64,000 bases of DNA from Clostridia bacterium (GCA_017525875.1 JAFXSG010000001.1:77699-141698), one strand, 5' to 3'; positions 40,250 through 63,648 are shown, numbered from the stretch's first letter. The notes: a model not told the origin generated them from the sequence alone. Program-made: numbers and translations.

Positions 40250-40254
40250 CGAAT

Positions 40255-42970: not shown

Positions 42971-42984
42971 ATCAGCCCCCGGGA

Positions 42985-43857: not shown

Positions 43858-43903
43858 ACGAGCAGGGCCTTGATATAAAGCGCATGAAAAACGGATCAAT
43901 ACA

Positions 43904-46232: not shown

Positions 46233-47738
46233 CTATGGTGGAACAGTATCATTCAACGCTGAACATGTGCCGCAGTCAGCCTCTTCACTGTTTTCAAAAG
46301 CTTTTTCGATGTCGTCAAGGGGGATATCCTTTTCCCTCTGCGGTGAAGTACTCGCATTGACGATCAGCGTGAAATGATCGTCGTACAGGTAAACCGCATG
46401 AACGAAAATGTTGATTATCGCCCTGCGCTTCTCAATGTCCAGCAGCGGCATGGTGCGGATGTAATCAAGGTATGCCATGACCTGCGGCTCCGAAAGATAC
46501 ACCTTGCGATTGAGCTCAGCCGCGAGCTGTTTTTCGAGCTCCGCTTTTTCCGCTCTGCGCTGTTCAAGGCGCTCGGTAAGCATATCGACCGATTGACCGG
46601 TTTCGATCATCCTCCAAAGGTTGTCGATCGCGGTTTCTGCTTCGCGTATCGCCTTACGCAGGGATTTTACCGTAAGGCTGTCGGGATCCCTACCGCATTC
46701 CTCGGCGACTCGCTTTGCAATGAACGCGATGTTTTCATCCGTCAGCAGGCTGAGGCATGCGTCGATAACTCGGTCCTCGATCTTCTGTTTGCCGATAAGC
46801 TTCTTATCGCATTTCCCGCGGCGGGCTTTCTTGCAAACATAATACGGGTAGTATGCACCGGAACGGCTCGTACCGCCGTAACCCGTCATCATTTCCCTGC
46901 AGTGACCACAGAATAGTTTTGTCGTGAGCAGATACTCACCTTCGCCCCGCTTGCGTGCGGGAACATGCAGATTTTTGTCAAGCATAACCTGTACCCTTTC
47001 AAAAAGATCGTCGTTCAGAATCCGGGGCATACCGCCCGGCGTTTCCTTACCGTCATAGATGTAGATGCCGAGATAACGACGGTTTCGGAGCATCTTGCTG
47101 AGGCTGTTATAAGTAAAATCCTTCCCGAGGGAGGTCTTGACCTTGCGCCTCTGCAGGTCCTTTATTATCTCGGCCTTTGTCTGGCCTTGAGCGTATCGCT
47201 CGAATATCTCACGGACGATCGCAGCTTCCTCCTCATCGACGCGAAAGGTCTTATCGGGATTGACCTTGAAGCCCAACCCGGGGTTGGATCCGTTCGAGAT
47301 GCATTTCTGCGCGTTAATGCCCATACCCCTTCGGATCTTCAATGAGAGCTCGGCGGAGTAGTACTCCGCCATGCTCTCCAACACGCCTTCAACGAGTATT
47401 CCGGAGGGATCGTCGGCAATGTTCTCCTTCGCGGATATCACGCGAACGCCGTTTTTCTTCAGCTTTGCCTTGTTGATGGCACTGTCATAACGGTTCCTAG
47501 CAAAACGGTCGAGCTGATAGACGAGTATCGCCTCAAACGTATGCCTCTCCGAATCGGCGATCATACGCTGAAACTCTGCACGGTTGTCGGTGGTACCCGA
47601 AACTGCGCGGTCGATGTACTCGCCGATGACGGTATAGCCGTTGGCCTCTGCATACTCATAGCAGACCTTAAGCTGACCTTCGATCGACTGCTCCGTCTGG
47701 CTGTAGCTCGAAAAGCGGGCGTAGATGACTATGTTCAT
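46233..47738 (-). CDS. Large serine recombinase (resolvase + recombinase + Zn ribbon)
   Basis: YARFSS catalytic Ser, QLDRFARN, CGHC..YYVC Zn ribbon and coiled coil. Confidence 0.95.
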   Translation of the reverse strand: MNIVIYARFSSYSQTEQSIEGQLKVCYEYAEANGYTVIGEYIDRAVSGTTDNRAEFQRMIADSERHTFEAILVYQLDRFARNRYDSAINKAKLKKNGVRVISAKENIADDPSGILVEGVLESMAEYYSAELSLKIRRGMGINAQKCISNGSNPGLGFKVNPDKTFRVDEEEAAIVREIFERYAQGQTKAEIIKDLQRRKVKTSLGKDFTYNSLSKMLRNRRYLGIYIYDGKETPGGMPRILNDDLFERVQVMLDKNLHVPARKRGEGEYLLTTKLFCGHCREMMTGYGGTSRSGAYYPYYVCKKARRGKCDKKLIGKQKIEDRVIDACLSLLTDENIAFIAKRVAEECGRDPDSLTVKSLRKAIREAETAIDNLWRMIETGQSVDMLTERLEQRRAEKAELEKQLAAELNRKVYLSEPQVMAYLDYIRTMPLLDIEKRRAIINIFVHAVYLYDDHFTLIVNASTSPQREKDIPLDDIEKAFENSEEADCGTCSALNDTVPP

Positions 47739-47810
47739 ACGCGGCTCCTTTCTCTCGCTTTGCCGTTATGATAGCAGACGCCCGCAGCATAGTCGAATGT
47801 GCGGGCAGAA

Positions 47811-47969
47811 CTATTTTTGATATTCGGGATGTTCACGCAGCCATTCCTCATACCACAGCCTCCCTTCGTCGCTTTGAAAGAAAGCTTTGATATCCGGCGC
47901 TATGGCCTTGGCGAATTCTTCAAGCAGATTTTCTTCATACTCTATCTTTGTTTCTTCGTTTTCGGGCAT
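47811..47969 (-). CDS. 52-aa hypothetical protein (possible recombination directionality factor)
   Basis: Manual translation MPENEETKIEYEENLLEEFAKAIAPDIKAFFQSDEGRLWYEEWLREHPEYQK; lies between parB and the recombinase. Confidence 0.55.
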   Translation of the reverse strand: MPENEETKIEYEENLLEEFAKAIAPDIKAFFQSDEGRLWYEEWLREHPEYQK

Positions 47970-47971
47970 AT

Positions 47972-48834
47972 CTATCTCTCTTCATCTCTGATCCTCTGTA
48001 AGTGCTTTTTGTAAAACGCGCAAGCCTTGATTATGAATTCCTGTACCCGCTGAGGCTCGGCGTCGGGCAGGTATTTGCCTATGCTGCTCATGGGGATACT
48101 GACCTTCTCGCGCTGATTGGGCTTTTCTTCCGCCATGATCGCGGCGATCGTCTCCTCGTTGAGCTTCCCTTCGCCGCTGAGCTTCTTCAACCGGCAGGCC
48201 TGGGAAAGCGAAGGCGTCGCCAGCGTAACGCCGATCTCAGTGAAGAGCATTTCCTGTTCCTCCTGTGAAAGGAAGGAAAGCTCCACCGCGGGAGTGAACG
48301 CGATGCGCTCCTCGTCTACCATGCGGAGAAGCGGCGGGATGAGGTGCGTCAGGCGGATGTAGCGCTGGATCTGCGTATTGCTCTCGTTGACACTTTCAGC
48401 AACGATTGCCCGCGACAACTTCTGTCCAACTTGGACAGAAGTTAAATCGGTGCGTTCGCCTTGGTTTTTCAGCGCCTCAAGCTTCAACTTGTACGCAAAT
48501 GCTTTTTCGCTCGGGAGCAGACGTTCCCTGTGAAGATTGCTGTCCACGAGCATGATAACCGCTTCATCGCGGGTGACCGCTTTGATAACTGCCGGGAGCT
48601 CTGTCAGCCCCGCAAGCTTCGCCGCATGCAGACGGCGATGACCGGAGATCAGTTCATATTCACCCGGGCGGCCTTCAATGGGTCTTACGATGAGCGGGGA
48701 CATAATCCCATGCTCACCGATGCTTTCTACAAGAGCGCTCATCTCATTGTTATCGAGCACCTTGTAAGGGTGTCCCTTAAGGGACGGATATTGTTTGCCG
48801 GTATCATGACCGGCGTACTAATTGTGTATTGCAT
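47972..48834 (-). pseudogene. ParB/Spo0J-like protein with a 1-bp frameshift near the 5' end
   Basis: YELISGHRR and VDSNLHRE motifs plus HTH. The ATG at 48834 is out of frame by one base with the conserved (F)KGHPYKV segment. Confidence 0.75.
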
Positions 48835-48867
48835 ATTTGTTTCCTTTCAGTTTTTTTGATGAATAAT

Positions 48868-48891
48868 AGGAGCGCCCTTTCGGACGCTCCC
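48868..48891 (-). terminator. Hairpin between the relaxase and parB genes
   Basis: GGAGCG-ccctttcgga-CGCTCC. Confidence 0.5.
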
Positions 48892-48903
48892 GGTGAAATT
48901 GTG

Positions 48904-50190
48904 TTATCGTTCTTCTTCATAATACATCGGCTTACCGTCGATCATAGGTTCATCCTCGAACGCCGCCCGCATCTTCGGGATATCGGCCTTGATATCCTCG
49001 CAGATACGCAGCTCCCGGCGGACGAAGCGCAGCTGCTCTGTCAGCGCGGCGATCTCGGGGATCGGTCCGCCCGTGCGCCGCTGTTCCTTACGGAGCGCAT
49101 CGCGCCTTGCTTTCAGCTCGCTGTATTCTTTACTGCGCATTGCGGCGTGCGCGTCAAGCTGATCCTCATTGTCGATGCCGTATTTATCGAGCAGATCATG
49201 CTGTCTGATGTACCGTTTGAGCTTCCGTACCTCTTCGCGGTTCACCCGGTACACGACCTTTTTGCCCTTGCCGAGCCATCCCAGCACGTACATCCACGAA
49301 AGCACCAGCGCCCTGAAGCCGTGCTGCTTCTGATATGGCACGAAAGGCTTTTCAGCCTTCGGAACAAGTATCTCCGTCTGCCGCTCAAAGCTGTCCCAAA
49401 GCATTTCCTCGATATCGTCTTCGGTCATGCTCTGACCATCCTTTTTCAGACGCAGAGGACGTTTTCCTCCGGGAGGCAGGAAAGAAGGATACTTGCATCG
49501 ATGATCGACCGTATAGCCGATCTCCTGCATGAGGCGGTAAAAGTGCTGTACATCGATCGCCCTGTCAATACACTCCCTCATATCGAGCTCGAGCATATCC
49601 TTCATGGTGAGCTGACCGTCCTTGTGAGCCCGCCACTCCGCAAAGCTCAAGCCATGACTTCGGGGGTTCTCGATAACGTAAAGCCCGTGTTCGCGGCAGA
49701 GCTCATCCGATACTTCCCTTAATCGCTGATGATCCTTTTTATGGTTCTCGTACTTTCTTCCCGTTCGGAAGGAAACGGAATTGACCACAAAATGATTATG
49801 TACGTTCTTGGTATTGAGATGGGTGGTAACGAGCACTTCGTATTCATCACCCCACATGCGCCGTGCCGTTTCCATACCCAGTGCGTGAGCTTCCTCGGGA
49901 GAGACCTCTTTACCATAGAAGCTTTGAAACCCGTGATAACAGGTATTCCCTCCGAGCTTTCCGTATCGTTTCTTCGTCGCCGTCATCCATTCATACGTCT
50001 GCTGCCATGGGCAGTTGAGAGCGGATACGTACATGAGCTTATCCGTCTTGCCGGGATCGGAAGTATAGCGCAAGACCTTTTTGAGGTCATCGGTCATATC
50101 CTCGGGAGCTATGGTCTTCTCGGGATTGACGGCGTAATCGATGACCCTTGAGATACTGTCCTTTATCGGCCAGAAGCCGGTTATTGCCAT
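48904..50190 (-). CDS. MOBP-type relaxase/mobilization nuclease
   Basis: VIDYAVNPEKT, YHGFQSF and the 3H motif THLNTKNVHNHFVVNSVS. Confidence 0.9.
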   Translation of the reverse strand: MAITGFWPIKDSISRVIDYAVNPEKTIAPEDMTDDLKKVLRYTSDPGKTDKLMYVSALNCPWQQTYEWMTATKKRYGKLGGNTCYHGFQSFYGKEVSPEEAHALGMETARRMWGDEYEVLVTTHLNTKNVHNHFVVNSVSFRTGRKYENHKKDHQRLREVSDELCREHGLYVIENPRSHGLSFAEWRAHKDGQLTMKDMLELDMRECIDRAIDVQHFYRLMQEIGYTVDHRCKYPSFLPPGGKRPLRLKKDGQSMTEDDIEEMLWDSFERQTEILVPKAEKPFVPYQKQHGFRALVLSWMYVLGWLGKGKKVVYRVNREEVRKLKRYIRQHDLLDKYGIDNEDQLDAHAAMRSKEYSELKARRDALRKEQRRTGGPIPEIAALTEQLRFVRRELRICEDIKADIPKMRAAFEDEPMIDGKPMYYEEER

Positions 50191-50191
50191 A

Positions 50192-50470
50192 TCACATCCC
50201 CTCGCTTTCAAAGAAGGCGCGGCGGATATCCGTCAGCAGATCCAATACCGCTTTTTCCGCCTCAGGTGATAACCCTCCGTTTGTCAGCTCGGAGAGCCTT
50301 CCCGTGATATCGAAAATAGCATCGGTCGGAGCCCATCGCGGCTCGTATCCCAATGCTCTCTTTCTCACGTATTCGCTTATCGTCAGCCCGCACTTTGCGG
50401 CTTTCCGGCATATGGCGGTCTTCTCTGACTTTGTTACCCTCAGCTCCAGACGTTCCTTTTTCTCTTTCAT
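50192..50470 (-). CDS. MobC-like ribbon-helix-helix relaxosome protein
   Basis: LELRVTKSEK..KAAKCGLTISEYVRKRALGYEP; immediately upstream of the relaxase. Confidence 0.85.
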   Translation of the reverse strand: MKEKKERLELRVTKSEKTAICRKAAKCGLTISEYVRKRALGYEPRWAPTDAIFDITGRLSELTNGGLSPEAEKAVLDLLTDIRRAFFESEGM

Positions 50471-50494
50471 GGCGCCACCGCCTTTGCCGGGGTA

Positions 50495-50562
50495 TTAGGG
50501 GCATCCCCTAAAAAGACCGCCGTTCCCCGAATCGGCGGAGCGGAACTTGCCGTACAAGTTCC
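50495..50562. other. Putative oriT
   Basis: Inverted repeats TTAGGGG-cat-CCCCTAA (50495-50511) and GGAACTTG-ccgta-CAAGTTCC (50542-50562) just upstream of mobC. Confidence 0.6.
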
Positions 50563-50710
50563 CTGCTGGCTATCGTTTTTTACATGGATACCCGGTATGC
50601 CGACCGGCGGGGATAGGTGCTTCCGCCGGGCGTGGTTATTCGTGCTTCCATGTGGCGCCATCGGTCTATCGGACGCAGGCCTGATGGCGCCAAATATGGG
50701 CGGTTTGGCG

Positions 50711-51049
50711 TCACGTGAACATATCGAGCGTTTCAAGTACATTTCGATCATTCTCCTGTCTCTCCTCATCGGTCATTTCCGCGGTAGGCGTGAATGTGGG
50801 TGCGGCCTCACGCGGGGCGAGATCGAGCTCCCGTATTTCCTCGCGGAACAATGCCCTAACGTCTTCAAGACTGAAATCGAATCTTCCCGGATACGAAAGG
50901 CGATCGAGATATTCCCCGATCGCCTTTATCGCAAACGCGCTCATCGATCCGTGCTCTTGTCGGTCGATCTCATGCAGTGCTTCGTACACCTTCCGCTGAT
51001 TAGGATCCGAAAGGTCGAACCTTACGCTGATCCTGTGAGAGTCCTTCAT
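50711..51049 (-). CDS. ParR/StbB-like DNA-binding adaptor
   Basis: MKDSHRISVRFDL..SMSAFAIKAI; coupled to parM; acidic helical C-terminus. Confidence 0.6.
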   Translation of the reverse strand: MKDSHRISVRFDLSDPNQRKVYEALHEIDRQEHGSMSAFAIKAIGEYLDRLSYPGRFDFSLEDVRALFREEIRELDLAPREAAPTFTPTAEMTDEERQENDRNVLETLDMFT

Positions 51050-51969
51050 ACGCCCTGCTCCGCTTTCAGCTGCAGCCCAGCGAGGTATTCGTAACCCTTT
51101 GCCGCAGCGCGGATATCGTCTATGAACCGCACGCGGCTGCCCTTCGTGCGATAGAAGTTTTTCACAAGACACCCGCCGCCTCCCGTGACTATGAGGTCCA
51201 TCGTGCTCTCGTCGTACCCATACTCGCGCAGCCTGCGGAATATGCCGCCGACGTATTCCTCCGCGACCGAGCGGATGAGCATCAGATCGTCCTTTGGCAT
51301 ATCCGCCGTTCCGTTTATCAGCACACTGTCGATTATCGAGTCGTCGATCTCAGCACCGCGCGCACTCATCAGGGCCTCATGCACGGCAAGCGTGCATTGG
51401 TGGGTGCCGAACTTCTCCGTGAACATTCGCCCGAGCTGCGGTCTGCCGTCGATGATGCACAGAGTGTTCATTGTCCCGTTGCCGATGTCGACTACGACGT
51501 TCATGTCCTTCATCGACGGCGCGTACTCCGCGACGGCGGCATACCCCTGCGGGTAGATCCTCGCCCCGAGTATGCGGATGTGATAATCGACCTTGCGGAA
51601 GGTGAAGCTTACCTCCGCGTTCCGCGTGAGGTATGCGGCGAATTCCGCCTTCTGTCCCGTGGTCCATGTGAGCGGGAGCCCGGCGGCGATGATAACGTCC
51701 GCTTCGGTCAGCCCTTCGTCCGCAAGCTCCATCGCGATCCCCGCCAGCGTGAGCAGGTAATAATCCTCGTCGCTCTGCTTTTTCGGCACGAATTCCTTGT
51801 GCCCCTCGCCGATGACGTAGTACCTCCCGCCGTACACGAGCATGTCGCCCGTGAACAGCGGCTCGTGATCGTACCCCGCGATACCCGCCTTGAAGATGTG
51901 GTTCGCGGTCTTGATGTTCCCGTAACCGTGGTCGACGCCGATGATGACGGCGTCATTGATTCTTTTCAT
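51046..51969 (-). CDS. ParM/StbA actin-like partition ATPase
   Basis: GVDHGYGNIK, AGLP, YPQGYAA, VDIGNGT and TGGG motifs. Confidence 0.9.
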   Translation of the reverse strand: MKRINDAVIIGVDHGYGNIKTANHIFKAGIAGYDHEPLFTGDMLVYGGRYYVIGEGHKEFVPKKQSDEDYYLLTLAGIAMELADEGLTEADVIIAAGLPLTWTTGQKAEFAAYLTRNAEVSFTFRKVDYHIRILGARIYPQGYAAVAEYAPSMKDMNVVVDIGNGTMNTLCIIDGRPQLGRMFTEKFGTHQCTLAVHEALMSARGAEIDDSIIDSVLINGTADMPKDDLMLIRSVAEEYVGGIFRRLREYGYDESTMDLIVTGGGGCLVKNFYRTKGSRVRFIDDIRAAAKGYEYLAGLQLKAEQGV

Positions 51970-52080
51970 TTTCTGCTACTTTCTCCTTATAGTTTATTTC
52001 CCCATTACGCCTGGGATGGGCGGTCCTTTGAGTTCTCTTCCCGCATTACTGCGGTGCGAAACGTTTTTCGGATCACACTG

Positions 52081-52239
52081 TCACTTCCCTTCCGCGTTTG
52101 CCGCGATCGGTTCGACCGGCTCATTCAGGATACGGTCCATGTCCCATTTATCAGCCAGATAATTGATGACGTCATGCACGTACTTCGCGCGCAGGCATTC
52201 CGATCGCATGATCTCTTTTGTCAGCTTCGGCTTCTTCAT
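52081..52239 (-). CDS. 52-aa hypothetical protein
   Basis: Manual translation MKKPKLTKEIMRSECLRAKYVHDVINYLADKWDMDRILNEPVEPIAANAEGK; strong RBS GGAAAGGAG. Confidence 0.55.
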   Translation of the reverse strand: MKKPKLTKEIMRSECLRAKYVHDVINYLADKWDMDRILNEPVEPIAANAEGK

Positions 52240-52313
52240 TTTTGCTCCTTTCCGCCTCTACGGAGGCATGTTATTTGATAAAAACTGGGGGTAGTTATTA
52301 AATAACAAAACAG

Positions 52314-52342
52314 TTGATTCCGTAGCCTTAAAGTGGTACAAT
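52314..52342 (+). promoter_or_regulatory. Sigma-A-type promoter of the polymerase-like gene
   Basis: TTGATT(52314)-17 bp-TACAAT(52337) with TG extension. This implies the real start is ATG 52360 or GTG 52372. Confidence 0.6.
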
Positions 52343-52359
52343 TATTCGAAAACCGAACG

Positions 52360-55300
52360 ATGGAGAAGACCGTGAAGCTCGAAAGATTCAAGATATTCCA
52401 AATACCGGCGAGAAACATAATTGCCGCTGCCCGCAAAAAAGGCGAGGGGTACAGTTTCGAATTCGATCCGTATGATGATTCAAGTGAATACCTTGTAGAG
52501 AAAACATATCAGGATGACTGCCCGATGTTTTATCAGGCAAAGGCCGTTCTGCAGGAGCTTGGGATAGATATGCCCTTTGGTGAAGACTGCCTTTCCGAAA
52601 CGTTTATCTATATAGACTTCTCAGGCATATTCGACAGGAAGCCCGTTGGAAGAGTAAAGGAACAGCAGGAGATCGCCGCACACATGTTCCGTGAAGAAGG
52701 CATTGAGATCTATAAGCGTCAGGGCTCCTGCAGATATGTCGCTTTCGAACGGTCGGCGAGCATGAGCCGCAATAACGTGCTTGCGTTCGTGCGCGAGGAA
52801 GTGTTCGAACCGCTCCGCAAGCGGATGATGCTGGGAATGGATATAGGTCTGTGTCAGCTTTCGAAGCTGTATGCATATAACGGTCTCATGTTCACTAACG
52901 GCTTCCGCTGTCTTGACTGCAGCAGCCTTTCGGATGACAGCATCATAGTGATCGACAACCCGAAGAGCATAGTCAGGGATGCGGATATCATCACCGTTGA
53001 GGATGACGGCACGGATGCTCCGGTGCGCAAATACAGCCGAGTCGAAAAGACCGCCGATATCGAAGTGCTCGAATTCGACGGCGAGGGTATAGTGTCAAAA
53101 GAGTTTGCTTCAAGGCTTGCATGGAGCGGCGAGCATCATTCGTTCCAGATACGTCTGCCTTACATCAAGGGAGTCGTGCATGAGGTGGATATCAAAAAGC
53201 TGTTTGCCGAATTGAAGGTCCCCGTCATTCGCGATATCTGGGGAAAAGAGCATGACGTACGCAAGGTGGATCTTATAATAACGAAGAGCATGTTCAAGGG
53301 GTTCGGATGGATGACGGAGAACGGGCTTTCATGGCGCGAGTATCTGGCAAGATGCGGAGAATACGGCCACGGGCTGTATGTATCCGGTATGGATAAGAGC
53401 AGTATGCAGGATACGACGGAGCTGAATTATCAGTTCCTGAACACACTTGCGATAGATCGCGAGCTGTTCCGCCCGGCCGATCTTCCTTCGGGCTGGGAAA
53501 GCTCTCCCGCGAACGACGAAAGGCAGTGGCTCACCAAGACCACCGAGGAACGGTACTGGTCCTATATTGCCGATACCGATTTCCGCAGGAAGCACTGTAT
53601 CGATGAATTGGAGGATGCCGAAGGTGCGCCGTCGCAAAGACGGAAAACGCTCCTGCAGGCAGCGATAAAGAACCCGCTCCTGCTCGAAGAACCGATCCTT
53701 GCAAGGGAGTTTGAGAAAAAGGCGGAAAGCATCCGCAACGACTATGCGTTGGGGATGCTTCTTGTCGCGGGAGACAGCCGCTATCTTTCCGACGATCTCA
53801 TGCGGCTCCTGGGCTATATCGTGAAAAGCTCTGTCGGGGAAGGCAAAGCCTTTAGCCTGCTGGAACAGGAGTTCCTGCAGGGAAACGAGATGTACGCACC
53901 TCTCCCCGGGTATAAGGAACAGGATATCTATACGCTCCTTCGCAGCCCGCATATCGCAAGAAACGAAGAAGCGCTTGCCGTGCCGCTCTCCGACGTCGGC
54001 AGGCTGCGGAAGAAATACCTGTCGCATCTGTCGTATGTGCTGATGGTAGATTCACGTTCGCTCATTCCGGAGCGCCTGGGCGGTGCGGATTACGACGGCG
54101 ATATGATAAAGACGATAGCCGATCCCATAGTCAACGGCTGCGTATTCCACGGCTATGAGGCCTCCGGCTCTCTGCCCGTATTGAAGATACCCGCCGCCGA
54201 ACCGCTTATCTCCGATGCCAACGACTGGCAGGCAAGGCTCGATTGCGTCAGGAGCACCTTTTCTTCCCGCGTAGGGCAGATAAGCAACGCTGCGCTGCGA
54301 AGGGGCATCGTCGCATATGACGAGAACAGCGACAGCGAAGAGCGTGAATTCGCGCGCATGGACACGGAAGTGCTCGCTATCCTGACCGGGCTTGAGATCG
54401 ACTCCGCCAAGAGCGGCATTAAGCCGGATCTTTCCGAATACCTCGAAAATCGCAAGGGAAAGAAAAGTCTTTTCCTCCGATACAAAAACATCGTTGACGA
54501 CGCCGAGGATCGTAAATGGTATGAGGCCACAACGCTTGAGCGCATCAAGAACTATATCGGTTCCGTGAAATGGGATAAGGTCAGTTCCGATCTTGAGCGT
54601 CTGCCGTACTACGCGTATATGCTCGAAAAGGGAACGCCAAAGCACGAGACCAAACCCGCTCCTGCGGATAAGCTTTTCGTTTTCGCCCGGGATCCGGATT
54701 GGAGGGATACCGTCGATCCTCACACAATGGAGCGAACCGAGGCTATCATATCGGCATATCGCGAAGCGCTGAGCCGTATCCGCTACATAAAACACCTTCC
54801 CAAAGACAGGGGGCGCAGGTCCGATATCGAGCAAATACTGTATTCCCGCGGGCAGGAGAACGAATACAGCGTTGACGAGCTGTACGCGCTGTTCGACTTC
54901 ACCGCACCGGCCACTGTGCGAAAAGCGAGGGCGAAGCTTTCCGAAATGAAATGGCATCTGCTCCCAAAGGAAGAAAGAGAGCCTGCGCTTTATGACTTTA
55001 ACATACATGCACTGCTCCGGAAGGCCGAGCTGTTCTGTGATTTCAGCTGCAGCGGCTACAGGGTGCTCGGCGATCTGATCTGTGACGTGGATGATATTAA
55101 CCGCAAAAACGATATTGCAAAACACATCGTCCGCAAGGGCGACGGCAGCGATATCAGGAGCCTGCTTATCGGAGTCAAACTGCACGGGAATTATGAAGAA
55201 AGGATAACCCTGAACTGTGTAAACCTCATAGCTCCTCCATATAGAGACGCGGAGACGCTTGATCAGGACAAAGTGCTCAAATGTGTCGAAGCCTTGGGCG

Positions 55301-55392
55301 AAAGGGAATTCGCGCTAAAGGTCCTTCCGGCAGCGGTCATGCGGAACATATCGGAACCCGTTCCCGAGAAACGCGGGAGGAGAAGGAAATGA
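52360..55392 (+). CDS. Single-subunit double-psi-barrel RNA polymerase-like protein (eukaryotic RdRP/phage YonO-like)
   Basis: Ordered motifs FDGEGIVS, FQIRLPYIKG, LLRSPHI, LGGADYDGD (54088-54102), VGQISN and IDSAKSG. Confidence 0.85.
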   Translation: MEKTVKLERFKIFQIPARNIIAAARKKGEGYSFEFDPYDDSSEYLVEKTYQDDCPMFYQAKAVLQELGIDMPFGEDCLSETFIYIDFSGIFDRKPVGRVKEQQEIAAHMFREEGIEIYKRQGSCRYVAFERSASMSRNNVLAFVREEVFEPLRKRMMLGMDIGLCQLSKLYAYNGLMFTNGFRCLDCSSLSDDSIIVIDNPKSIVRDADIITVEDDGTDAPVRKYSRVEKTADIEVLEFDGEGIVSKEFASRLAWSGEHHSFQIRLPYIKGVVHEVDIKKLFAELKVPVIRDIWGKEHDVRKVDLIITKSMFKGFGWMTENGLSWREYLARCGEYGHGLYVSGMDKSSMQDTTELNYQFLNTLAIDRELFRPADLPSGWESSPANDERQWLTKTTEERYWSYIADTDFRRKHCIDELEDAEGAPSQRRKTLLQAAIKNPLLLEEPILAREFEKKAESIRNDYALGMLLVAGDSRYLSDDLMRLLGYIVKSSVGEGKAFSLLEQEFLQGNEMYAPLPGYKEQDIYTLLRSPHIARNEEALAVPLSDVGRLRKKYLSHLSYVLMVDSRSLIPERLGGADYDGDMIKTIADPIVNGCVFHGYEASGSLPVLKIPAAEPLISDANDWQARLDCVRSTFSSRVGQISNAALRRGIVAYDENSDSEEREFARMDTEVLAILTGLEIDSAKSGIKPDLSEYLENRKGKKSLFLRYKNIVDDAEDRKWYEATTLERIKNYIGSVKWDKVSSDLERLPYYAYMLEKGTPKHETKPAPADKLFVFARDPDWRDTVDPHTMERTEAIISAYREALSRIRYIKHLPKDRGRRSDIEQILYSRGQENEYSVDELYALFDFTAPATVRKARAKLSEMKWHLLPKEEREPALYDFNIHALLRKAELFCDFSCSGYRVLGDLICDVDDINRKNDIAKHIVRKGDGSDIRSLLIGVKLHGNYEERITLNCVNLIAPPYRDAETLDQDKVLKCVEALGEREFALKVLPAAVMRNISEPVPEKRGRRRK

Positions 55393-56240
55393 CGAACGAA
55401 TGGAAGGAATTCAAAGCCTACACCGGCAAGCCGGTCTATAGGTCGTCCTCGAAAAAGGACAGGACTTTTCTCGGCAGATTCACTATCGAAATGATGTGTG
55501 AGTTTACCGGCTTCAAGCGTATCCTCACGACAATCGCCCGAGGCTATCTTTTCCATGCGAAGGACGGGAGCCTTCTGCCGGTAGATCCGCGCGATAGGCT
55601 TGACTATGCGCTGAACGCTATTAAGGCATGGTGCAGTGTACCGGAAAGAAGCAAAAGCTTCGTCCCGCCCGTGGACTTTCGGGAGCTGGCCGATATCTTT
55701 CCGGAGCTTGTGGATAAGAACGGTAACGGCTGGTATTACCGCCATGCAAAGAAGGTAATGGACTATGCGAAAAAGAACCCCGGCATAGTGCACAGCTCCA
55801 TCGTGAAAAAGTGCGAGGGCATGCGCCGGGGGTTCACAAAGAAATGGCAGAAGGAAGTCCGCGGTCTTCAGGTGCCGATATTCGCGCTCAACACCAAAGC
55901 CGGCTGGAAACTGCGCTTTGACGATATCCTCGCCGATGCGCTTGAGGCAGGACCGCTGCGCATGGAGGAATACGAGCTTCCGCAGCACGTTTCCGATATG
56001 CTTTCCATACTCTGCCCGGAGGATGTGCCCATGGACGTCCTAAAGGACATTGCCGCATTCTATCTTGCCAACCGCCGCGAGGATACCGATTGGGTCGTCC
56101 TTCCTGTCGCCAATTTCGAAGCCTACTATGGCGCCACGAACTTCAGCAAGCTTTACCTAAAAAAGATCCCCGAAACGATACTCGTTCGGGAATCTCGGGG
56201 GCATGTGTGCAGGGTGAAGATGAAGTTGTTCTGCAAGTAA
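55389..56240 (+). CDS. 283-aa hypothetical protein translationally coupled to the polymerase-like gene
   Basis: ATGA overlap at 55389-55392; basic protein; no recognised motif. Confidence 0.75.
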   Translation: MTNEWKEFKAYTGKPVYRSSSKKDRTFLGRFTIEMMCEFTGFKRILTTIARGYLFHAKDGSLLPVDPRDRLDYALNAIKAWCSVPERSKSFVPPVDFRELADIFPELVDKNGNGWYYRHAKKVMDYAKKNPGIVHSSIVKKCEGMRRGFTKKWQKEVRGLQVPIFALNTKAGWKLRFDDILADALEAGPLRMEEYELPQHVSDMLSILCPEDVPMDVLKDIAAFYLANRREDTDWVVLPVANFEAYYGATNFSKLYLKKIPETILVRESRGHVCRVKMKLFCK

Positions 56241-56285
56241 CTGAAGCATGAATCGGTTTATTGTATCGTTTTTCATCTTTTTATG

Positions 56286-56314
56286 TTGATATTTGACCGG
56301 GTTTCCTGTATAAT
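56286..56314 (+). promoter_or_regulatory. Sigma-A-type promoter of the Xre gene and defence cargo
   Basis: TTGATA-17 bp-TATAAT. Confidence 0.65.
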
Positions 56315-56350
56315 GTCAGCAAGAATATACTCGCACAAGGGAGAATCCGC

Positions 56351-56563
56351 ATGGCAGTCAGCTATAAAAAGCTATGGAAGCTTTTGATCGATAAGGATAT
56401 GAAGAAATGCGATCTCGAGCGCAAAGCCGGGATCACGCACTATGCCCTTGGCAAGCTTTCCAAAGGTAAGGACGTCTCAACGGAAGTCCTCGGGAAGATA
56501 TGCGAAACGCTGAATTGCACGATCGACGATATCATGGAATTCGTGCCGGAGGAAGAAAAATAA
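56351..56563 (+). CDS. Cro/C1 (Xre) HTH regulator
   Basis: MAVSYKKLWKLLIDK..KICETLNCTIDDIMEF pattern. Confidence 0.9.
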   Translation: MAVSYKKLWKLLIDKDMKKCDLERKAGITHYALGKLSKGKDVSTEVLGKICETLNCTIDDIMEFVPEEEK

Positions 56564-56666
56564 CGGCTTTCCGAGAGAAGAAAGCCGATCAGTCAGACTG
56601 AAATCGAACGGACAACATTTCCTTAGGAGGAAATTGTTGCTTCCATCTGTAAACGGAGGAAGCCCT

Positions 56667-59621
56667 ATGAGCAAAATTAGTGAAGAAACCACAAAAGGTT
56701 TAGTCGCAGATAAACTGAAAAACACTTTGGGATATCCGACTTCACAAAATGTGACAGTTTCCGGAATCACATGGTTTAAGGAAGATAGTTATAAGGGGAC
56801 AAGCTATAACTGGCTGGATAGTGTGTTTTCAAAAGCCACGAAGAAACAGACTCTTCAAAGCAAAGGCACCCCTGACTTCATTGTAACTAAAGAAGACTCA
56901 AGTGTAATTGTTGTTATAGAGTGCAAGGGAGACATTACCCATCATTCGAGTCTATCTGATTCTAATGCATTTAAGTATTCTGGATATGGAACTCCTGCAG
57001 AAACAGAAGCCTATGCTATTAACGGGGCCTTATGGTATGCAACGTTTTTAAATGACAGATATGATGTTATTGCAGTAGGGGTTTCCGGACAGATTGAGGT
57101 AGCATGTAGAGTTACATCTTTCGTTTTGCCACGCGGTGGGAAAATCGAAGACATTGAGCTGCTGGAAGATGATTATCTCTCTGGCGCACTCGTATCTATT
57201 TCGCAATACGAAAAAGATGTGGATGTAGTATTAGATCGATTTGCAGGAACAGAAGCAGCGATAAAGAAGGAACTAAGACGCTATACATTAACATGTGCGA
57301 ATTTCTTGCGTTCAAATGGTATTGAAGATAATTCAAAAGCTGGGTTTATCTCGGCTGTTATCCTTGGATTAACGAATCACGAATCAAAACTATATAAGGA
57401 TACAAAAGCGGCTATTGATGCCAAAAGAGCCTCAAAGAGTAAAAAACTGTTGTCTGATCCCCTCGGAAGGAATGCGGTCAAACTGCTTAAGGCATCACTC
57501 TATGGCGACGGAAATGAATATGACGAAGACTTTATTAAGGGAATATGGGACATTGACAGAATTCCCCGTGGCAAAAGAACTTCATTAAAAAAGTTTTATG
57601 ACAATCTTTTGTCAAAGGATGAACTATTGCATGCTCCAAAAGGCGATTATAAAGACTTTCCTGACGGCGTAACGGTCTTGTCTCGTTGCGTGTTTTCTCT
57701 ATACGAAAATGTAATCGAAGTTTTGGAGAAATACACAGGAATCGATGTTATGGGAGAATTCTACACAACATTTTTGCGCTTTACTAAAGGAAACGCAAAA
57801 GAGAAAGGGATTGTTTTAACTCCCAAACACATTACTGAGTTGTTCTGTGATATTGCCGAGTATTATTCTGACACAAAGTTTAATGAAAATACAAAAGTCA
57901 TTGATATATGCTGTGGAACGGGTGCGTTCCTTATTGCTGCACTTGCTCGCATGAAGAAAAACATATCTGGGCTGAAAATTAGTGAAGGCGCTAAGGCAGC
58001 AAAATATGAAGTGGCACAGAAAAGCAGCTTGATCGGTGTGGAAAAAGATCCGTCTATGTACGCCTTAGCATATGCCAATATGCGGTTTCATGGAGACGGA
58101 AAAGCCAATCTATTTAACTGCTCGTCACTTCTGATTGATTCTTATGCACCTGTTGATGATAGTGGGAAGACATATTTAGAGGATACTAAAGTGCCCCTGC
58201 ACGAGGCCTTAAAGAGCTTTGGCGATATAGATATTGCTATGATTAATCCGCCATACTCTCTAGATAAAAAAGATAACTCAGCTTCTCGTGAGTATCCAAT
58301 AATCCAGAAGAAAACGGAATTAGAAGACAAATTAAAAAGACTTAAGCAACTTCAAAGAGCATTGAAAAAGAAGGATCAAACGGAAGCTACACAGCAGGAA
58401 CTGATGAGGCTGGAGAAAGACATCCGGCTCATAGAAGCGGCGATAGTTAAACAGGACAACGAATTGGATGATAGTGGTTTCCGTGAAATCGTCATTTCAA
58501 AAGGACAAGATGAGCTGGATTTTGTTGCTTCGATGCTCCATTATCTCAAAAAGGGTGGCATTGGTATAGCTATTGTACCTATGTCATGTGCTGGGAGCAG
58601 TGGCACCTCGTTAAGAACATCTTTGTTAGAGCACCATACTTTACTAGCATGCATGACTATGCCCAGCAATCTTTTCTTTGATAGCCATGTAGGAGCAAAT
58701 ACATGCATCATGGTATTTAAAGCCCACGTACCGCACGATGAACAAAAATCAGTCTTTTTTGGTGTTTGGAATGATGATGGGTTTTCGGTTATACCGCATA
58801 ATGGACGGAAGGATACCGGAAAATGGTCTGCCATTCGTCAAGGGTGGATTGATCAACTTGATGGAATAGCTGAGCCAAACGAGACAATGTGGCTAAAGCA
58901 CAAAATGAACAGTAACGGCGAAGCACTTCCCGAAGCATATGTCAAAACTGACAACAAGAAAATAACGGAAGAACTATTCAAAAATGTAGTTCGCAATTAT
59001 GCATTATATAAGTATATGGATTCAAAATCAGCGTTAGATATAAAAGATTCGCAGAAAATGCTTTGGCTACTTGATAACTATACTGATTTTGAAAAACGGT
59101 ATTCTCCATCATTAATTGAAAAACAACTTGCCTTAACAGATAGGCCGTGGTCAGTATTTAAGTTTCAACGCATTATTGATGATATTCATAATGGAAAGTC
59201 TTATAATAACGTAGATCTAGTTGCGGCTGACATCGACGATTATATCCTATATATTACTCGTACAGAGCAAAACAATGGAGTATCGATGTGTGTCCAGGCA
59301 ATGGATTACTCCGGATTAGAGAAGGCAAATGCCATTACGATTGGCGATACTACTGCCACCATTTTCTTTCAAGATCATGATTTTCTTACTGGTCCACACA
59401 TGATAGTTGTTCGAGCCAATTGGATAAATGTGTATTCTGCCCTTTTCGTAATCACGCTACTAAATCAGGAAAAGTATAGATACCCTGTTTTTGGACGTGC
59501 ATTCACCAAGGACCTAATCGCTGAAACACAACTTTATTTGCCTGTCGACGCAGATGGGCATCCAGATTATGCATTTATGGAGGAATACATTAAGTCATTA
59601 CCTTTCAGCGTAAGAATTTGA
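56667..59621 (+). CDS. Fused restriction-modification enzyme (endonuclease + N6-adenine MTase + TRD; type IIG/BcgI-like)
   Basis: GTPDFIV..IECK nuclease motif, GEFY..LTPKHI, DICCGTGAFL (motif I), NPPY (motif IV) and a C-terminal S-subunit-like region; AT-rich. Confidence 0.85.
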   Translation: MSKISEETTKGLVADKLKNTLGYPTSQNVTVSGITWFKEDSYKGTSYNWLDSVFSKATKKQTLQSKGTPDFIVTKEDSSVIVVIECKGDITHHSSLSDSNAFKYSGYGTPAETEAYAINGALWYATFLNDRYDVIAVGVSGQIEVACRVTSFVLPRGGKIEDIELLEDDYLSGALVSISQYEKDVDVVLDRFAGTEAAIKKELRRYTLTCANFLRSNGIEDNSKAGFISAVILGLTNHESKLYKDTKAAIDAKRASKSKKLLSDPLGRNAVKLLKASLYGDGNEYDEDFIKGIWDIDRIPRGKRTSLKKFYDNLLSKDELLHAPKGDYKDFPDGVTVLSRCVFSLYENVIEVLEKYTGIDVMGEFYTTFLRFTKGNAKEKGIVLTPKHITELFCDIAEYYSDTKFNENTKVIDICCGTGAFLIAALARMKKNISGLKISEGAKAAKYEVAQKSSLIGVEKDPSMYALAYANMRFHGDGKANLFNCSSLLIDSYAPVDDSGKTYLEDTKVPLHEALKSFGDIDIAMINPPYSLDKKDNSASREYPIIQKKTELEDKLKRLKQLQRALKKKDQTEATQQELMRLEKDIRLIEAAIVKQDNELDDSGFREIVISKGQDELDFVASMLHYLKKGGIGIAIVPMSCAGSSGTSLRTSLLEHHTLLACMTMPSNLFFDSHVGANTCIMVFKAHVPHDEQKSVFFGVWNDDGFSVIPHNGRKDTGKWSAIRQGWIDQLDGIAEPNETMWLKHKMNSNGEALPEAYVKTDNKKITEELFKNVVRNYALYKYMDSKSALDIKDSQKMLWLLDNYTDFEKRYSPSLIEKQLALTDRPWSVFKFQRIIDDIHNGKSYNNVDLVAADIDDYILYITRTEQNNGVSMCVQAMDYSGLEKANAITIGDTTATIFFQDHDFLTGPHMIVVRANWINVYSALFVITLLNQEKYRYPVFGRAFTKDLIAETQLYLPVDADGHPDYAFMEEYIKSLPFSVRI

Positions 59622-59652
59622 GAAAGAAGCAAATCAGGAAGGGACTCAGATT

Positions 59653-60729
59653 ATGAACAATACCAAACTCCAATCTGCCATATCAGCGTTCGTCAAAAAC
59701 AAAAAGGCCAACGCTGCCTACTATGATGATAACTGGACCGAACGCAAAGAACGCAAAGCCTATTATCAGTCGTTTACGCGGGACAAGCTCCTTGCTATGA
59801 CCGAGGAGGACTTCTTCGAGTACATGAGCAGGCTTTGGTCCATGGTCATGTGGGGCAACAAACGTTTTGTTGTGGACAAGCTGATTGCCGACAACGGCTT
59901 TGAAGCGCTGAAAAAGCATCTCGCGGAATTGCTGTATGGTTCGGCTTCGTTTGAAAAGCGGTGGAATACCTTCTTGAAAGAAGTGAAGGGCATGGGGCCG
60001 TCCACGATCAGCGAGCTTCTTACCTATACCAACCCGAACGAATACATCCTTTTCAACAAGACGACGATCCTCTGCTATACATACCTCGATATTCCGGATA
60101 TGCCCAAATACAACTATCAGTACACGGGGAAGAAGTATCTGGAGGCTTGTGCGATCGCGAAGGATATTTCGGCTGCGCTCAAGGCTGCCGGGGTGGATGA
60201 CTGCGATCTGCTGGCGGTCGATTACTTCCTGTGGGATGAGGTTCTGCCGCTTGCCGAAAAGAAGGAACCCGGAGATCAGGTCCCCGTGACCGGCACGCCG
60301 AAAACAGCCAGTGATTCCAAATCGCTGCACGAAGAGATAAAGGAAAAACTCGTTGCCATAGGTGAGCTGCTGGGGTTTGAAAGCCGATCAGAGGTGAAGA
60401 TCACCACCGGTGCGGTCGTCGATGCCGTCTGGGAAGCAAAGATAGGCAATATGGGAAAGGCGATATATGTGTTTGAAGTCCAGTCCAAGGGCTCCATCGA
60501 CAGCCTGATTCTGAATCTCAAAAAGGCACAGAGCAACGCCGCCGTTCAGGCCGTTGTCGCCGTGGCAGACGAAGAACAGCTTGCGAAGATCATTCGCGAG
60601 AGCGCCGGCGTCATCGACGAGAAATCCCTTCGCACATGGAATAGCGAAGACGTCCTCGCCGTTTATGACGCCCTGGTGCGCGCACATGAGTCGATCAATA
60701 AACTGGCACTTGTGCCGGAGAGTTTTTAA
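59653..60729 (+). CDS. Hypothetical protein with a putative C-terminal PD-(D/E)XK nuclease domain
   Basis: HEEIKEKL..G..LGF, VDAVW..VFEVQ motifs; N-terminal KGMGPSTISELL HhH-like segment. Confidence 0.55.
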   Translation: MNNTKLQSAISAFVKNKKANAAYYDDNWTERKERKAYYQSFTRDKLLAMTEEDFFEYMSRLWSMVMWGNKRFVVDKLIADNGFEALKKHLAELLYGSASFEKRWNTFLKEVKGMGPSTISELLTYTNPNEYILFNKTTILCYTYLDIPDMPKYNYQYTGKKYLEACAIAKDISAALKAAGVDDCDLLAVDYFLWDEVLPLAEKKEPGDQVPVTGTPKTASDSKSLHEEIKEKLVAIGELLGFESRSEVKITTGAVVDAVWEAKIGNMGKAIYVFEVQSKGSIDSLILNLKKAQSNAAVQAVVAVADEEQLAKIIRESAGVIDEKSLRTWNSEDVLAVYDALVRAHESINKLALVPESF

Positions 60730-60757
60730 TAGTATTCTCAATTGGAAAAGAAGACAT

Positions 60758-61711
60758 ATGAGCAGCTTATTCATCGCAGGAAATGGGTTTGATATAGCAC
60801 ATGGTATTCCTTCAAAATATAGCGATTTTAGAGCACGTTTAATTGATGCATATCCCGAAGCGCTTAAGCTGCGAGACGAAAAAGTGTTTTTAGAAGACTT
60901 CAATGATATTGATCCTTATGAGTTTGCTGCGGAAATCTTGTTAAATACAATGGATAAAGCTGCAGGAGAAAACTGGTGGAATTTTGAAGAAGCATTGGCT
61001 TATGTTAGCTTCGACAACAAATTGCCAAGGCCCAATCACAAAGAAAACGAAACAGAAGACGAAGACCGAGAGCTAATGACCCATTACCTTCTTTACATGG
61101 ATAAGCTCACCAATGGTTTTATTAACTGCTCAAAGATATGGCAAGTTTTTTTTCGCCTTTGGATTAAAGAACTGCAAAGACGCATCGATAATAACGAATT
61201 CAGAAAGAGAGATGCATTAAACACTATTATTTCTGACAATGATATTCAGTTCTTAACCTTCAACTATACAAAAACCCTGCAAAAGCTTTATGGAGTGAAA
61301 AAAGTTATTCATATTCATAATCGAGTGGGGCAGAACTTGATTTTTGGTCATGGAAAAGAGAACGCAATGTATTCTCCGCTTGTTGACAGTATAGAAGATG
61401 GACCTTGCATCGGTTCTTCCTTCCTTGACGATATGATAATGTCGTTTAAAAAAGATACCTCATCAGCACTAAATAAATACTATGATTTCTTTAAAAAGCT
61501 TAATGATAATGTTGACAACGTCTATTCGTATGGATTTGGTTACGGAAGTGTTGACAGTGTATATATAAAGAGAATTCTGAAGATGATTTCACCTGATGCC
61601 ACTTGGTTCTTTACAAAATATGAATCGCTAGATGCAAGAGCGCTGAAAATAAAAAAGATCAAGCTGAGACGGTATGGCTTTAAGGGCAAATTTGACTTGT
61701 TCGAGGGATAA
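60758..61711 (+). CDS. AbiH-family (SIR2-like) abortive infection protein
   Basis: LFIAGNGFDIAHG..SKYSDF, TFNYT, HIH, IFGHG and YGFGYGSVD motifs. Confidence 0.85.
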   Translation: MSSLFIAGNGFDIAHGIPSKYSDFRARLIDAYPEALKLRDEKVFLEDFNDIDPYEFAAEILLNTMDKAAGENWWNFEEALAYVSFDNKLPRPNHKENETEDEDRELMTHYLLYMDKLTNGFINCSKIWQVFFRLWIKELQRRIDNNEFRKRDALNTIISDNDIQFLTFNYTKTLQKLYGVKKVIHIHNRVGQNLIFGHGKENAMYSPLVDSIEDGPCIGSSFLDDMIMSFKKDTSSALNKYYDFFKKLNDNVDNVYSYGFGYGSVDSVYIKRILKMISPDATWFFTKYESLDARALKIKKIKLRRYGFKGKFDLFEG

Positions 61712-61874
61712 TAATAGTTTTACAGTAAAGATAATCGCCGATAGGAATCTTTGAGATGTTGTGTCTTTTGTTAACTATTTCTGCGATCAATTGCCTGTTG
61801 AGACATCACTAATAACCTGCACTATTCACAGTGTTGCAATGCCAAAGTGATAATAGAGAGCAAGACTACAATAA

Positions 61875-63377: not shown

Positions 63378-63420
63378 TTTCAGCCCCCAATCTCTTCTTG
63401 CAACCTGCCAGAAAAAACTA

Positions 63421-63648
63421 TTAAATAGCACCGTACTTGTTGTGATTGATTCTGCCTACCAAATAATCCAGCGACACTCCATAAAGATCCGCAATACGGA
63501 TCAGGATCTCCAGTTTGGGTTCTCGCGTCATAAGTTCATAGTTTTGATAGGCCTTCTCGGTTATGTCGCAATATACTGCGACCTGCATCTGAGTAAGGCC
63601 CTTTTCTTTTCTGCACGTCTTAAGGCGCTCGGCTAAGATCTCTCGCAT
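63421..63648 (-). CDS. Xre-family HTH regulator
   Basis: RKEKGLTQ..YQNYE..REP..IADLYGVSLDYLVG. Confidence 0.9.
   Translation of the reverse strand: MREILAERLKTCRKEKGLTQMQVAVYCDITEKAYQNYELMTREPKLEILIRIADLYGVSLDYLVGRINHNKYGAI

Follow-up and report, generated by a model that had tools for sequence, protein, structure and literature searches.

A two-barrel RNA polymerase-like protein and its coupled partner as backbone genes of integrative mobilizable elements from gut and rumen Clostridia

This study concerns two overlapping genes in a 64-kb stretch of DNA from a Clostridia bacterium (GCA_017525875.1 JAFXSG010000001.1:77699-141698), which we call the window and in whose coordinates positions are given. 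The first gene encodes a protein of 1010 residues, almost certainly a two-barrel nucleotide polymerase in a single chain, with its catalytic site intact, and a member of the family comprising the cellular RNA-dependent RNA polymerases (RdRPs) and YonO, its activity being predicted. The second encodes a protein of 283 residues, here termed the partner. A survey of related loci supports that the two genes form an invariable part of the backbone in an integrative mobilizable element (IME) of gut and rumen Clostridia. As for the role of the pair, we tentatively regard RNA synthesis on the DNA of the element, primarily of primers for complementary- or lagging-strand synthesis, as the most likely one; the computed evidence discriminates firmly between none of the roles proposed below.

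The polymerase and its partner

An initial annotation of the window had described an open reading frame (ORF) of about 1010 codons carrying the motifs FDGEG, FQIR..KG, LRSPH, GGADYDGD and VGQISN..IDSAK in this order, had noted its ATGA overlap with a gene for 283 residues, and had placed the protein in the two-barrel family of QDE-1 and YonO. All three observations held. The motifs are present in this order (Table 1), and an alignment of 73 sequences, reaching down to 22% identity to the query, shows no variation at their key residues. These residues are D240, G241, G243, Q263, R265, P267, K270 and G271, and likewise R528, P530, H531, D577, D579, G580, D581, G639, D681, K684 and G686. Passages of an earlier study list eight residues as invariant in all two-barrel RNA polymerases (RNAPs), namely D709, R738, K743, R962, P964, D1007, D1009 and D1011 in QDE-1 numbering (Ruprich-Robert & Thuriaux 2010, PMC2919709). 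Their counterparts in the window polymerase, D240, R265, K270, R528, P530, D577, D579 and D581, are invariant in all 73 sequences (8/8). HMMER aligned the polymerase to the QDE-1 motifs NDGIG, QGRM..AKGM and GGDYDGD.

The match to the Pfam RdRP family PF05183 (residues 554-709, E 1.4e-7) scored 31 bits against a curated cutoff of 23.8, and the same family was present in 119 of 120 homologues among the matches listed, the exception being a fragment of 566 residues. When the family profile was compared with PDB sequences, QDE-1 ranked first with a marginal E of 0.0075, the alignment covering the DxDGD and FDGxG..FQxR..KG stretches; phmmer with the polymerase itself gave no match among PDB sequences. 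The family assignment thus rests on four independent kinds of evidence: PF05183 above its cutoff, sequence similarity to YonO, the QDE-1 profile match and the full-length structural match to RDR2 and QDE-1 described below. Matches to the polymerase at E<=1e-3 numbered 1789 clusters in a database clustered at 90%, and 1323 representatives after clustering at 50%. Neither the polymerase nor the partner matched a family in NCBIfam or, at E<=1, in PADLOC-DB. Among the PHROGs, the polymerase matched only families of unknown function (phrog_8308, 1.7e-43), with the 'RdRP' family phrog_4291 reaching merely 0.058. A tblastn comparison with 50,697 phage records matched 39 of them, none reaching 80% query coverage, and these included genes labelled 'RNA-dependent RNA polymerase' in Thomasclavelia and Enterocloster phages.

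The polymerase was modelled with AlphaFold2 from the 73-row alignment, with a predicted local distance difference test score (pLDDT) of 90.3 and a predicted template-modelling score (pTM) of 0.86. The comparison of this model with known structures agreed with the kinship proposed initially. The top 16 Foldseek matches listed were RDR2 or QDE-1 exclusively (E 1.2e-13 to 3.1e-11, probability 1.0), followed by P74 gp62 (3e-6), P32 gp64 (1e-5), the RNAP of crAss phi14:2 (1e-3) and bacterial beta-prime (~1e-2). Structural alignment with VIA gave a Z of 25.6 for maize RDR2 (629 residues aligned, root-mean-square deviation 4.9, model residues 8-1002) and of 23.2 for QDE-1 (654 residues aligned, model residues 6-1002). 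Phage RNAPs scored lower, with 17.0 for P32 gp64 (model residues 50-802), 16.7 for P74 gp62, 11.4 for P23-45 gp96 and 9.9 for crAss phi14:2. In the model, then, the polymerase has the complete architecture of a cellular RdRP (RDR2/QDE-1-like), including a C-terminal region outside the coverage of the phage enzymes. Two double-psi beta-barrels are probably present: the model aligns to the catalytic domains of RdRPs, and its residues 195-345 and 467-586 are rich in beta structure. The structural matches also included QDE-1 structures with a DNA template and an RNA primer (7y7r, 7y7s and 7y7t), indicating that DNA-templated RNA synthesis occurs in this fold.

The two genes meet at AAATGA (55387-55392), where the ATG of the partner at 55389 overlaps the TGA of the polymerase (55390-55392), with GGAGG 8 nucleotides (nt) upstream. 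The family of the partner comprises 1695 clusters, and none of the 120 members among the matches listed carries a Pfam domain; the partner itself matched no Pfam family. Of 399 genomes scored in a sample from the whole class, 5 carried it, a sporadic distribution. Several apparent assignments were discarded. A Pfam row for Herpes_heli_pri (E 0.098, below cutoff) was dismissed as chance, a comparison of the partner profile with PDB sequences returned only chance-level rows, the best being aldehyde dehydrogenase (0.0053), and the 'translation repressor' suggested by the ESM Atlas was rejected, its best score of 0.84 being reached by one-third of shuffled proteins. In one relative (L064, 12876-13685) the partner gene contains a masked run, appearing as X in the translation, and its row in the partner alignment is incomplete.

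The model of the partner (pLDDT 89.3, pTM 0.87) gave nothing at E<=0.001 with Foldseek. Its residues 1-195 form a helical domain, for which no structural match was obtained. In an exhaustive VIA comparison, residues ~196-283 aligned to winged-helix domains in nearly all of the 50 matches listed, with Z values of 4.7-6.7, under the trust level of 8. Among these were a chain of the N4 RNAPII-DNA complex (Z 6.7) and TFE/TFIIE-alpha (5.8), as well as Fur, CtsR, CodY, ORC subunits and the N-domain of DnaD. Residues 196-283 thus look like a winged helix in the model.

The partner was also co-folded with residues 590-1010 of the polymerase, a segment picked because the partner tracks the long form of the enzyme. 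The interface score ipSAE was 0.84, against 0.00 for the best of three controls; contacts agreed to at least 62% between runs and the pLDDT of the partner was at least 84. A score of 0.84 was reached by 58 of 80 solved complexes and by 2 of 110 mismatched pairs, counts that are approximate with custom alignments. The model supports binding of the partner to the C-terminal region of the polymerase. On the partner, the predicted interface comprises residues 68, 71, 163-186, 230-237 and 270-275. It includes or abuts near-invariant residues of both proteins, W865 and G899 of the polymerase and F177-G188, W235-P239, G272 and R275 of the partner.

The distribution of the partner was then compared with the form of the polymerase. 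When one genome per prokaryotic species was scanned, 177 polymerase relatives emerged. The 80 loci retained from these come without exception from Clostridia of the rumen or gut, and most belong to metagenome-assembled genomes (MAGs). Two cultured strains are among the carriers, Hominenteromicrobium mulieris CLA-AA-H250 (L072) and Faecousia intestinalis CLA-AA-H192 (L080). Of the 65 loci whose downstream flank measures 900 nt or more, 64 have an adjacent partner, and this constancy, together with the co-fold score of 0.84 against the control value of 0.00, supports the coupling to a downstream partner that had been proposed from the gene overlap. A search of viral contigs with the polymerase alignment gave 39 loci. 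The hidden Markov model (HMM) of the partner matched one of the 39 (L086, a long form of 43% identity), and it found no partner beside the forms of ~820-940 residues on viral contigs of 80-170 kb. In a count over all loci, the 62 complete long forms (at least 950 residues) each had an adjacent partner (62 of 62), as against 1 of 26 short forms. To be counted, a locus had to have a full polymerase frame followed by 1000 nt or more of sequence; 19 incomplete loci were skipped, and loci with a polymerase E above 1e-20 and the two loci of the window genome itself were excluded. The single short form with a partner (L052, 893 residues) resembles a truncated long form. In a quick maximum-likelihood tree, one branch (SH-aLRT 100) splits long from short forms. 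The tree holds 27 long and 17 short rows hand-chosen for spread and is midpoint-rooted with no outgroup, with L084 and the yonO locus (L085) on long branches. In this tree, the long-form clade is distinct from the phage forms of ~850 residues.

A distant version of the pair occurs at L084, where a polymerase homologue of 1158 residues (26% identity) is overlapped by a downstream ORF encoding a partner homologue (hhalign probability 96.7%, E 3.2e-10). The locus (1-14896) belongs to MT835651.1, a record titled 'UNVERIFIED: Bacteriophage sp.'. No virion gene was found in the stretch scanned, and the record may not be phage. Around this pair lie genes for an Exo_endo_phos protein, HAD_SAK_2, a Mutator transposase, a metallophosphoesterase, a microbial PARG and a PD-(D/E)XK nuclease. 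The gene downstream of the RdRP-like gene of Thomasclavelia phage TR-TP1 was considered as a further partner homologue and ruled out (hhalign probability 0.2%). Near-identical polymerases appeared in the tree under different family labels (L003, L004, L007, L081 and others), pairing the window genome with a Christensenella MAG and a Clostridia MAG with an Erysipelotrichaceae MAG. This fits recent horizontal transfer, and binning errors are a possible cause.

The element and its control region

The initial annotation had assigned the pair to an integrative mobilizable element of non-phage character, and the gene content supported this. A recombinase, a relaxase, NikA, ParM and ParB are encoded beside it (Table 1), and no virion gene was seen from 44 kb in the window to the end of the contig. 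No type IV secretion system or coupling-protein family was present among the ORFs scanned over the same span, within which the right end of the element is undefined, the contig stopping 6.9 kb past the window. The polymerase gene is present in a single copy in the 2.49-Mb, 92%-complete genome and lies within a contig of 148.6 kb. The pair is transcribed divergently from the relaxase and partition genes. In the closest relative (L009), positions 46236-56553 are common at 91% identity, a 10.3-kb backbone whose left edge is marked by the serine recombinase gene and beyond which the cargo differs. Since backbone homology extends to 56553 and the cargo follows, the polymerase pair is to be counted among the backbone genes rather than the cargo.

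Table 1 Features of the element and of the polymerase gene, with positions in the window
Feature	Position	Strand	Remarks
Large serine recombinase	46233-47738	-	Resolvase 8.1e-28, Recombinase 3.8e-19, Zn ribbon 2.1e-9
ParB_N-domain protein	47972-48760	-	Pfam
MobA/VirD2-type relaxase	48904-50211	-	7.2e-38
NikA-like relaxase accessory protein	50192-50470	-	2.5e-14
Conserved non-coding stretch, ~30 nt, upstream of nikA	50536-50572	.	12 loci, distant ones included
ParR-like small protein	50711-51049	-	E 1e-17 to a member of a recurrent 109-residue cluster downstream of parM
ParM/ALP actin-like partition ATPase	51046-51969	-	ALP_N 1.6e-11
52-residue ORF	52081-52239	-	good ribosome-binding site; first gene of leftward operon
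Conserved non-coding motif	52279-52309	.	consensus ~AAAAAGTGGGGGCAGTTATCAAATAAC; palindrome GTTAT-N3-ATAAC; abuts -35
Host-type promoter-like site	52314-52342	+	TTGATT-17-TACAAT, extended TG, 18 nt upstream of ATG; consensus match only
Long-form RdRP/YonO-like two-barrel polymerase	52360-55392	+	1010 residues from first ATG
Polymerase ORF, alternative GTG start	52333-55392	+	1019 residues (ORF listing)
FDGEG	53074-53088		polymerase residues 239-243
FQIR..KG	53143-53172		polymerase residues 262-271
LRSPH	53938-53952		polymerase residues 527-531
GGADYDGD	54088-54102 (catalytic DYDGD)		polymerase residues 574-581
VGQISN			polymerase residues 638-643
EIDSAKSG			polymerase residues 679-686
Predicted partner docking surface on polymerase	54832-55095	+	residues 825-912; C-terminal region with no counterpart in short phage forms
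Partner gene	55389-56240	+	283 residues; translationally coupled to polymerase (ATGA)
Backbone non-coding tail	56241-56553	.	96% identical, in L009 only; homology of relatives ends at 56553
Variable low-GC (0.41) cargo	56634-61711	+	starts past backbone end
N6 methylase fused to type I S domain	56634-59621	+	cargo
Gene for 358 residues	59653-60729	+	cargo; no assigned function
AbiH	60554-61711	+	cargo

The neighbours recur across the family. An unbiased census of ORFs over 81 loci found ParM in 34 loci, MobA relaxase in 32, serine recombinase in 31, ParB in 27, ParR-like protein in 26, NikA in 23, tyrosine integrase in 15, TnpV in 12, Cys_rich_VLP in 11, extracytoplasmic function (ECF) sigma in 10, DUF6809 in 8 and MobL relaxase in 6. 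ParM, relaxase and serine recombinase are thus recurrent companions, and homologues are not confined to prophages with virion genes. Among loci with enough flank, ParM was present in 42 of 64, the relaxase in 37 of 50 and ParB in 27 of 45. The ParR-like protein has a ribbon-helix-helix look from its sequence only and matched no Pfam family. In 11 relatives a Cys_rich_VLP gene stands at the place of the 52-residue ORF. The most divergent loci retain this layout with recombinase and relaxase types exchanged: a tyrosine or serine recombinase, a MobL relaxase and small helix-turn-helix genes are followed by a divergent polymerase-partner pair and then by cargo, in many cases defensive. Among the recurrent neighbour families scanned in this census, none was recognisable as a Rep or primase.

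Between the two divergent operons lies a conserved motif (GTGGGGGCAGTTATCAAATAAC-like, 52279-52309), found at no more than 5 mismatches in 26 of 73 loci, including loci whose polymerases are 52-62% identical. It occurs once per element, and its conservation exceeds that of the flanking proteins. Its palindrome and its position in the divergent control region suggest that it is probably an operator or another protein-binding site. Equivalent -35/-10 pairs to that of the window are visible before the polymerase operon in relatives. The conserved stretch upstream of nikA is, by its position, probably an origin of transfer (candidate oriT). Rfam gave no match between 46000 and 57000 at E<=1.

Thirteen sequencing runs hold small shares of the stretch, and four of these, recorded as RNA and stored as contigs, were compared with it. 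Their contigs cover 30/30 bins in X1, 28/30 in X2 (both from one study) and 8/30 each in X6 and X9, and are mostly 90-95% identical, deriving from relatives and not from this strain. These contigs are not evidence of transcription, as strand, ends and level are invisible in them and DNA was possibly present.

As for the cargo, the gene for 358 residues recurs in L009 at 96% identity despite different surrounding genes. An HTH_3 gene follows AbiH. The variable part as a whole, 56634-63648 and its continuation past the window (L082, 1-5398), is a stack of defence and addiction genes. In that continuation come a phosphoesterase, two GNATs and AbiEii/AbiEi, and then, near the contig end, TnpV with a Mob_Pre relaxase, a second small mobilizable unit. 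In F. intestinalis, the cargo by the polymerase pair (L080, 14517-20405) includes an AIPR abortive-infection gene and a Z1/ResIII helicase-like gene. On the other side of the insertion site, a same-strand run of polysaccharide-type genes (~26000-43900, +) is probably a capsule or cell-wall glycopolymer locus. It includes a Wzt-type ABC ATPase (37701-38993), a pyruvyl transferase (38990-40249), a cytidylyltransferase (40177-40899), an HMGL-like protein (40915-42510), a HAD protein (42503-42970) and a metallophosphoesterase (42907-43857). A giant ORF of 2464 residues (11245-18639, -) lies well outside the element.

Possible roles of the pair

We considered the following scheme for the synthesis of primers. 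After excision or conjugative transfer, the element would exist as circular and single-stranded DNA. The polymerase-partner complex would make RNA on this DNA, chiefly primers for complementary- or lagging-strand synthesis, with the partner recruiting or positioning the polymerase through its winged-helix domain. The operon would apparently be driven by a host-type promoter, and the pair would stand in for a Rep or primase module that otherwise seems to have no counterpart in these elements. The presence of ParM/ParR, detected in 42 of the 64 loci, implies that the element exists at some stage as an autonomous replicon. Priming is favoured on account of the circular and single-stranded forms, of ParM/ParR, of the action of the nearest structural relatives on single-stranded templates and of the QDE-1 structures with a DNA template and an RNA primer.

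A number of points weigh against this scheme. Relaxase-driven rolling-circle replication with priming by the host could suffice for such elements, judging from the general biology of integrative conjugative elements (ICEs). ParM was undetected in 22 of 64 loci. The relatives with a MobL-type relaxase have a small HTH_36 protein encoded just upstream, with a sub-threshold match to RP-C (replication protein C), which could itself be the initiator. A search of the operon's surroundings for iterons or origin-like repeats gave nothing beyond short matches in two or three copies, such as chance would produce. None of the 28 loci that make up whole contigs has the terminal overlaps that would indicate a circular form, and the majority of copies are located within long contigs of the chromosome; an autonomous form is therefore deduced and not seen. 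In the co-fold, the wing of the winged helix (partner residues 230-237 and 270-275) contacts the polymerase, so this domain may bind protein rather than DNA, or both. Because the query itself served to retrieve the surveyed loci, which are mutually related, their counts are non-independent observations. Activity, template preference and replication role alike are what we infer, and we hold them tentatively. Finally, the sole characterised homologue on the bacterial side, YonO, is described in passages of PMC5467207 as a DNA-dependent transcriptase of phage late genes.

This last point leads to a somewhat less likely, though quite possible, explanation, that the polymerase is an element-specific, YonO-like transcriptase for which the partner serves as a sigma- or TFE-like promoter-specificity subunit by means of its winged helix. 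YonO, to which the polymerase is homologous, is reported in the same passages as the DNA-dependent RNAP of SPbeta late genes, with its promoter-recognition factor unknown (PMC5467207). The C-terminal domain of the partner matches winged helices of the transcription machinery (Z 5.8 for TFE/TFIIE-alpha and 6.7 for the N4 RNAPII-DNA chain), the conserved single-copy motif beside the operon could be a promoter, and the predicted complex would fit a holoenzyme equally well. On the other hand, these Z values of 5-6.7 are under the trust level of the tool, the long forms are a clade apart from the phage transcriptases by one branch (SH-aLRT 100), and in structure the polymerase resembles RdRPs, whose templates are single-stranded, more closely than phage RNAPs. 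The motif at 52279-52309 is single-copy, and no conserved motif was found to be repeated before several operons. Host-type -35/-10 pairs are visible before both the operon and the cargo. Moreover, 10 relatives carry an ECF sigma factor of their own, a different route to element-specific transcription, and a backbone of ~10 kb hardly justifies a dedicated transcription machine of 1293 residues. Were the pair to act in transcription nevertheless, it would amount to a minimal RNA polymerase of two subunits that brings along a specificity factor of its own.

We consider it unlikely that the pair is a conflict or defence module, in which RNA, possibly RNA-templated, would be made against phages or competing elements, or antisense or double-stranded RNA would set the copy number of the element itself. 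The closest structural relatives are indeed RdRPs of RNA interference (RNAi), and defence cargo lies directly downstream, with restriction-modification and AbiH genes here, AbiEii/AbiEi further on, and AIPR and Z1/ResIII in L080. The distant pair of L084 also stands among conflict-type genes (PARG, HAD_SAK_2 and the PD-(D/E)XK nuclease). However, the pair is part of the conserved backbone, with variable cargo starting only at 56553, and its constant companions are integrases and relaxases. PADLOC gave no match, and no Dicer-, Argonaute- or nuclease-type gene was recurrent beside the pair in the 81-locus census.

Still more doubtful is a related proposal, that the long form is a true bacterial RNA-dependent RNA polymerase which, with the partner, copies or amplifies RNA of the element, for instance as antisense or double-stranded RNA, for copy-number control or for silencing rivals and phages. 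Such an enzyme would represent, in prokaryotes, a precursor of the step that RdRPs carry out in eukaryotic RNAi, with the complete RDR2/QDE-1 architecture kept on mobilizable elements of gut Clostridia.

A DNA polymerase using deoxynucleoside triphosphates, or a non-catalytic structural or regulatory protein, is very improbable: two-barrel RNAPs are homologous to archaeal replicative PolD according to the abstract of PMC7281927, and sugar selectivity is undecidable from sequence alone, but no PolD chain was among the Foldseek or VIA matches listed, the characterised close relatives all make RNA, and a protein without catalytic function would hardly keep every catalytic residue strictly invariant.

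Comparison with known systems

The likeness of the pair to the primase and replication modules of conjugative plasmids, ICEs and IMEs would be a functional analogy, suggested by its position beside the mobilization and partition genes of an element with a single-stranded stage, where such a module might be looked for, and the Pfam scan of the polymerase gave no match to a DnaG, AEP/PrimPol or Rep family. To our knowledge, RdRP/YonO-like proteins of bacteria have been known from sequence data of 2003-2012, and only YonO has been characterised.

The initial annotation had raised the idea of an RdRP-like, primase-like enzyme outside phages. Its setting was supported by our analysis, and the idea itself proved not to be new. 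Passages of Aravind et al. 2012 (PMC3417536, citing Iyer & Aravind 2011) describe RdRP cognates in bacterial non-phage selfish elements, proposed 'as primases enabling their replication', and the window polymerase very probably falls in the same broad group. The family assignment, the non-phage setting and the primase idea were thus already published in 2011-2012. The neighbours named in these passages are REase and URI DNases, with RNase H fusions in cyanobacteria; they name neither a relaxase/ParM/recombinase backbone nor a coupled partner, both of which the 2011 primary account and figure may show. About 50 YonO-like proteins in firmicute genomes were noted in 2010, in passages of PMC2919709. 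The main texts of two IME surveys (PMC12904643 and PMC12084326) do not contain 'RNA polymerase', 'RdRP' or 'ParM', and their supplementary tables may list the gene. A long-form clade with full RdRP architecture, an obligate partner with its docking site and a fixed place in relaxase-bearing elements was not found in the literature searched, supplementary tables and the 2011 primary account being outside the search.

If the pair primes or initiates replication, integrative elements would possess a type of replication module that has so far gone unrecognised, and an RNA-copying function would have direct implications for how RNAi arose. Through these elements, defence genes and other cargo are disseminated among Clostridia of the gut and rumen, and the two cultured carriers make experiments feasible.

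YonO of SPbeta is homologous to the window polymerase, with 23-24% identity by tblastn over query residues 125-534 (E 2e-8 to 5e-4) and a match of the family profile to the yonO frame at 1.1e-31, and it has the same catalytic motifs in a single-chain two-barrel protein. It is a phage-borne enzyme of ~840 residues which transcribes late genes, according to passages of Forrest et al. 2017 (PMC5467207). Downstream of yonO come a terminator and an HU-like gene, and no counterpart of the partner; in the tree, YonO falls on the short-form side of the split. The window polymerase differs from YonO in its extra N- and C-terminal regions, its obligate partner and its location on a non-phage element.

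The Thermus phage RNAPs (P32 gp64, P74 gp62 and P23-45 gp96) and that of crAss-like phi14:2 belong to the same superfamily and are virion or early phage transcriptases. They match the core of the window polymerase only (~50-802) and are far less similar to it than the cellular RdRPs are. QDE-1 and plant RDR2 share with it PF05183 and the eight catalytic residues, and they are its best full-length structural matches in the PDB, with only 12-17% identity over the aligned residues. These eukaryotic RdRPs act in small-RNA pathways, and no homologue of the partner was detected for them when the partner profile was compared with PDB sequences. The window polymerase thus represents a large clade set apart by the full architecture of an RNAi polymerase, by a constant partner that has no known family, and by its place in the backbone of a mobilizable element.

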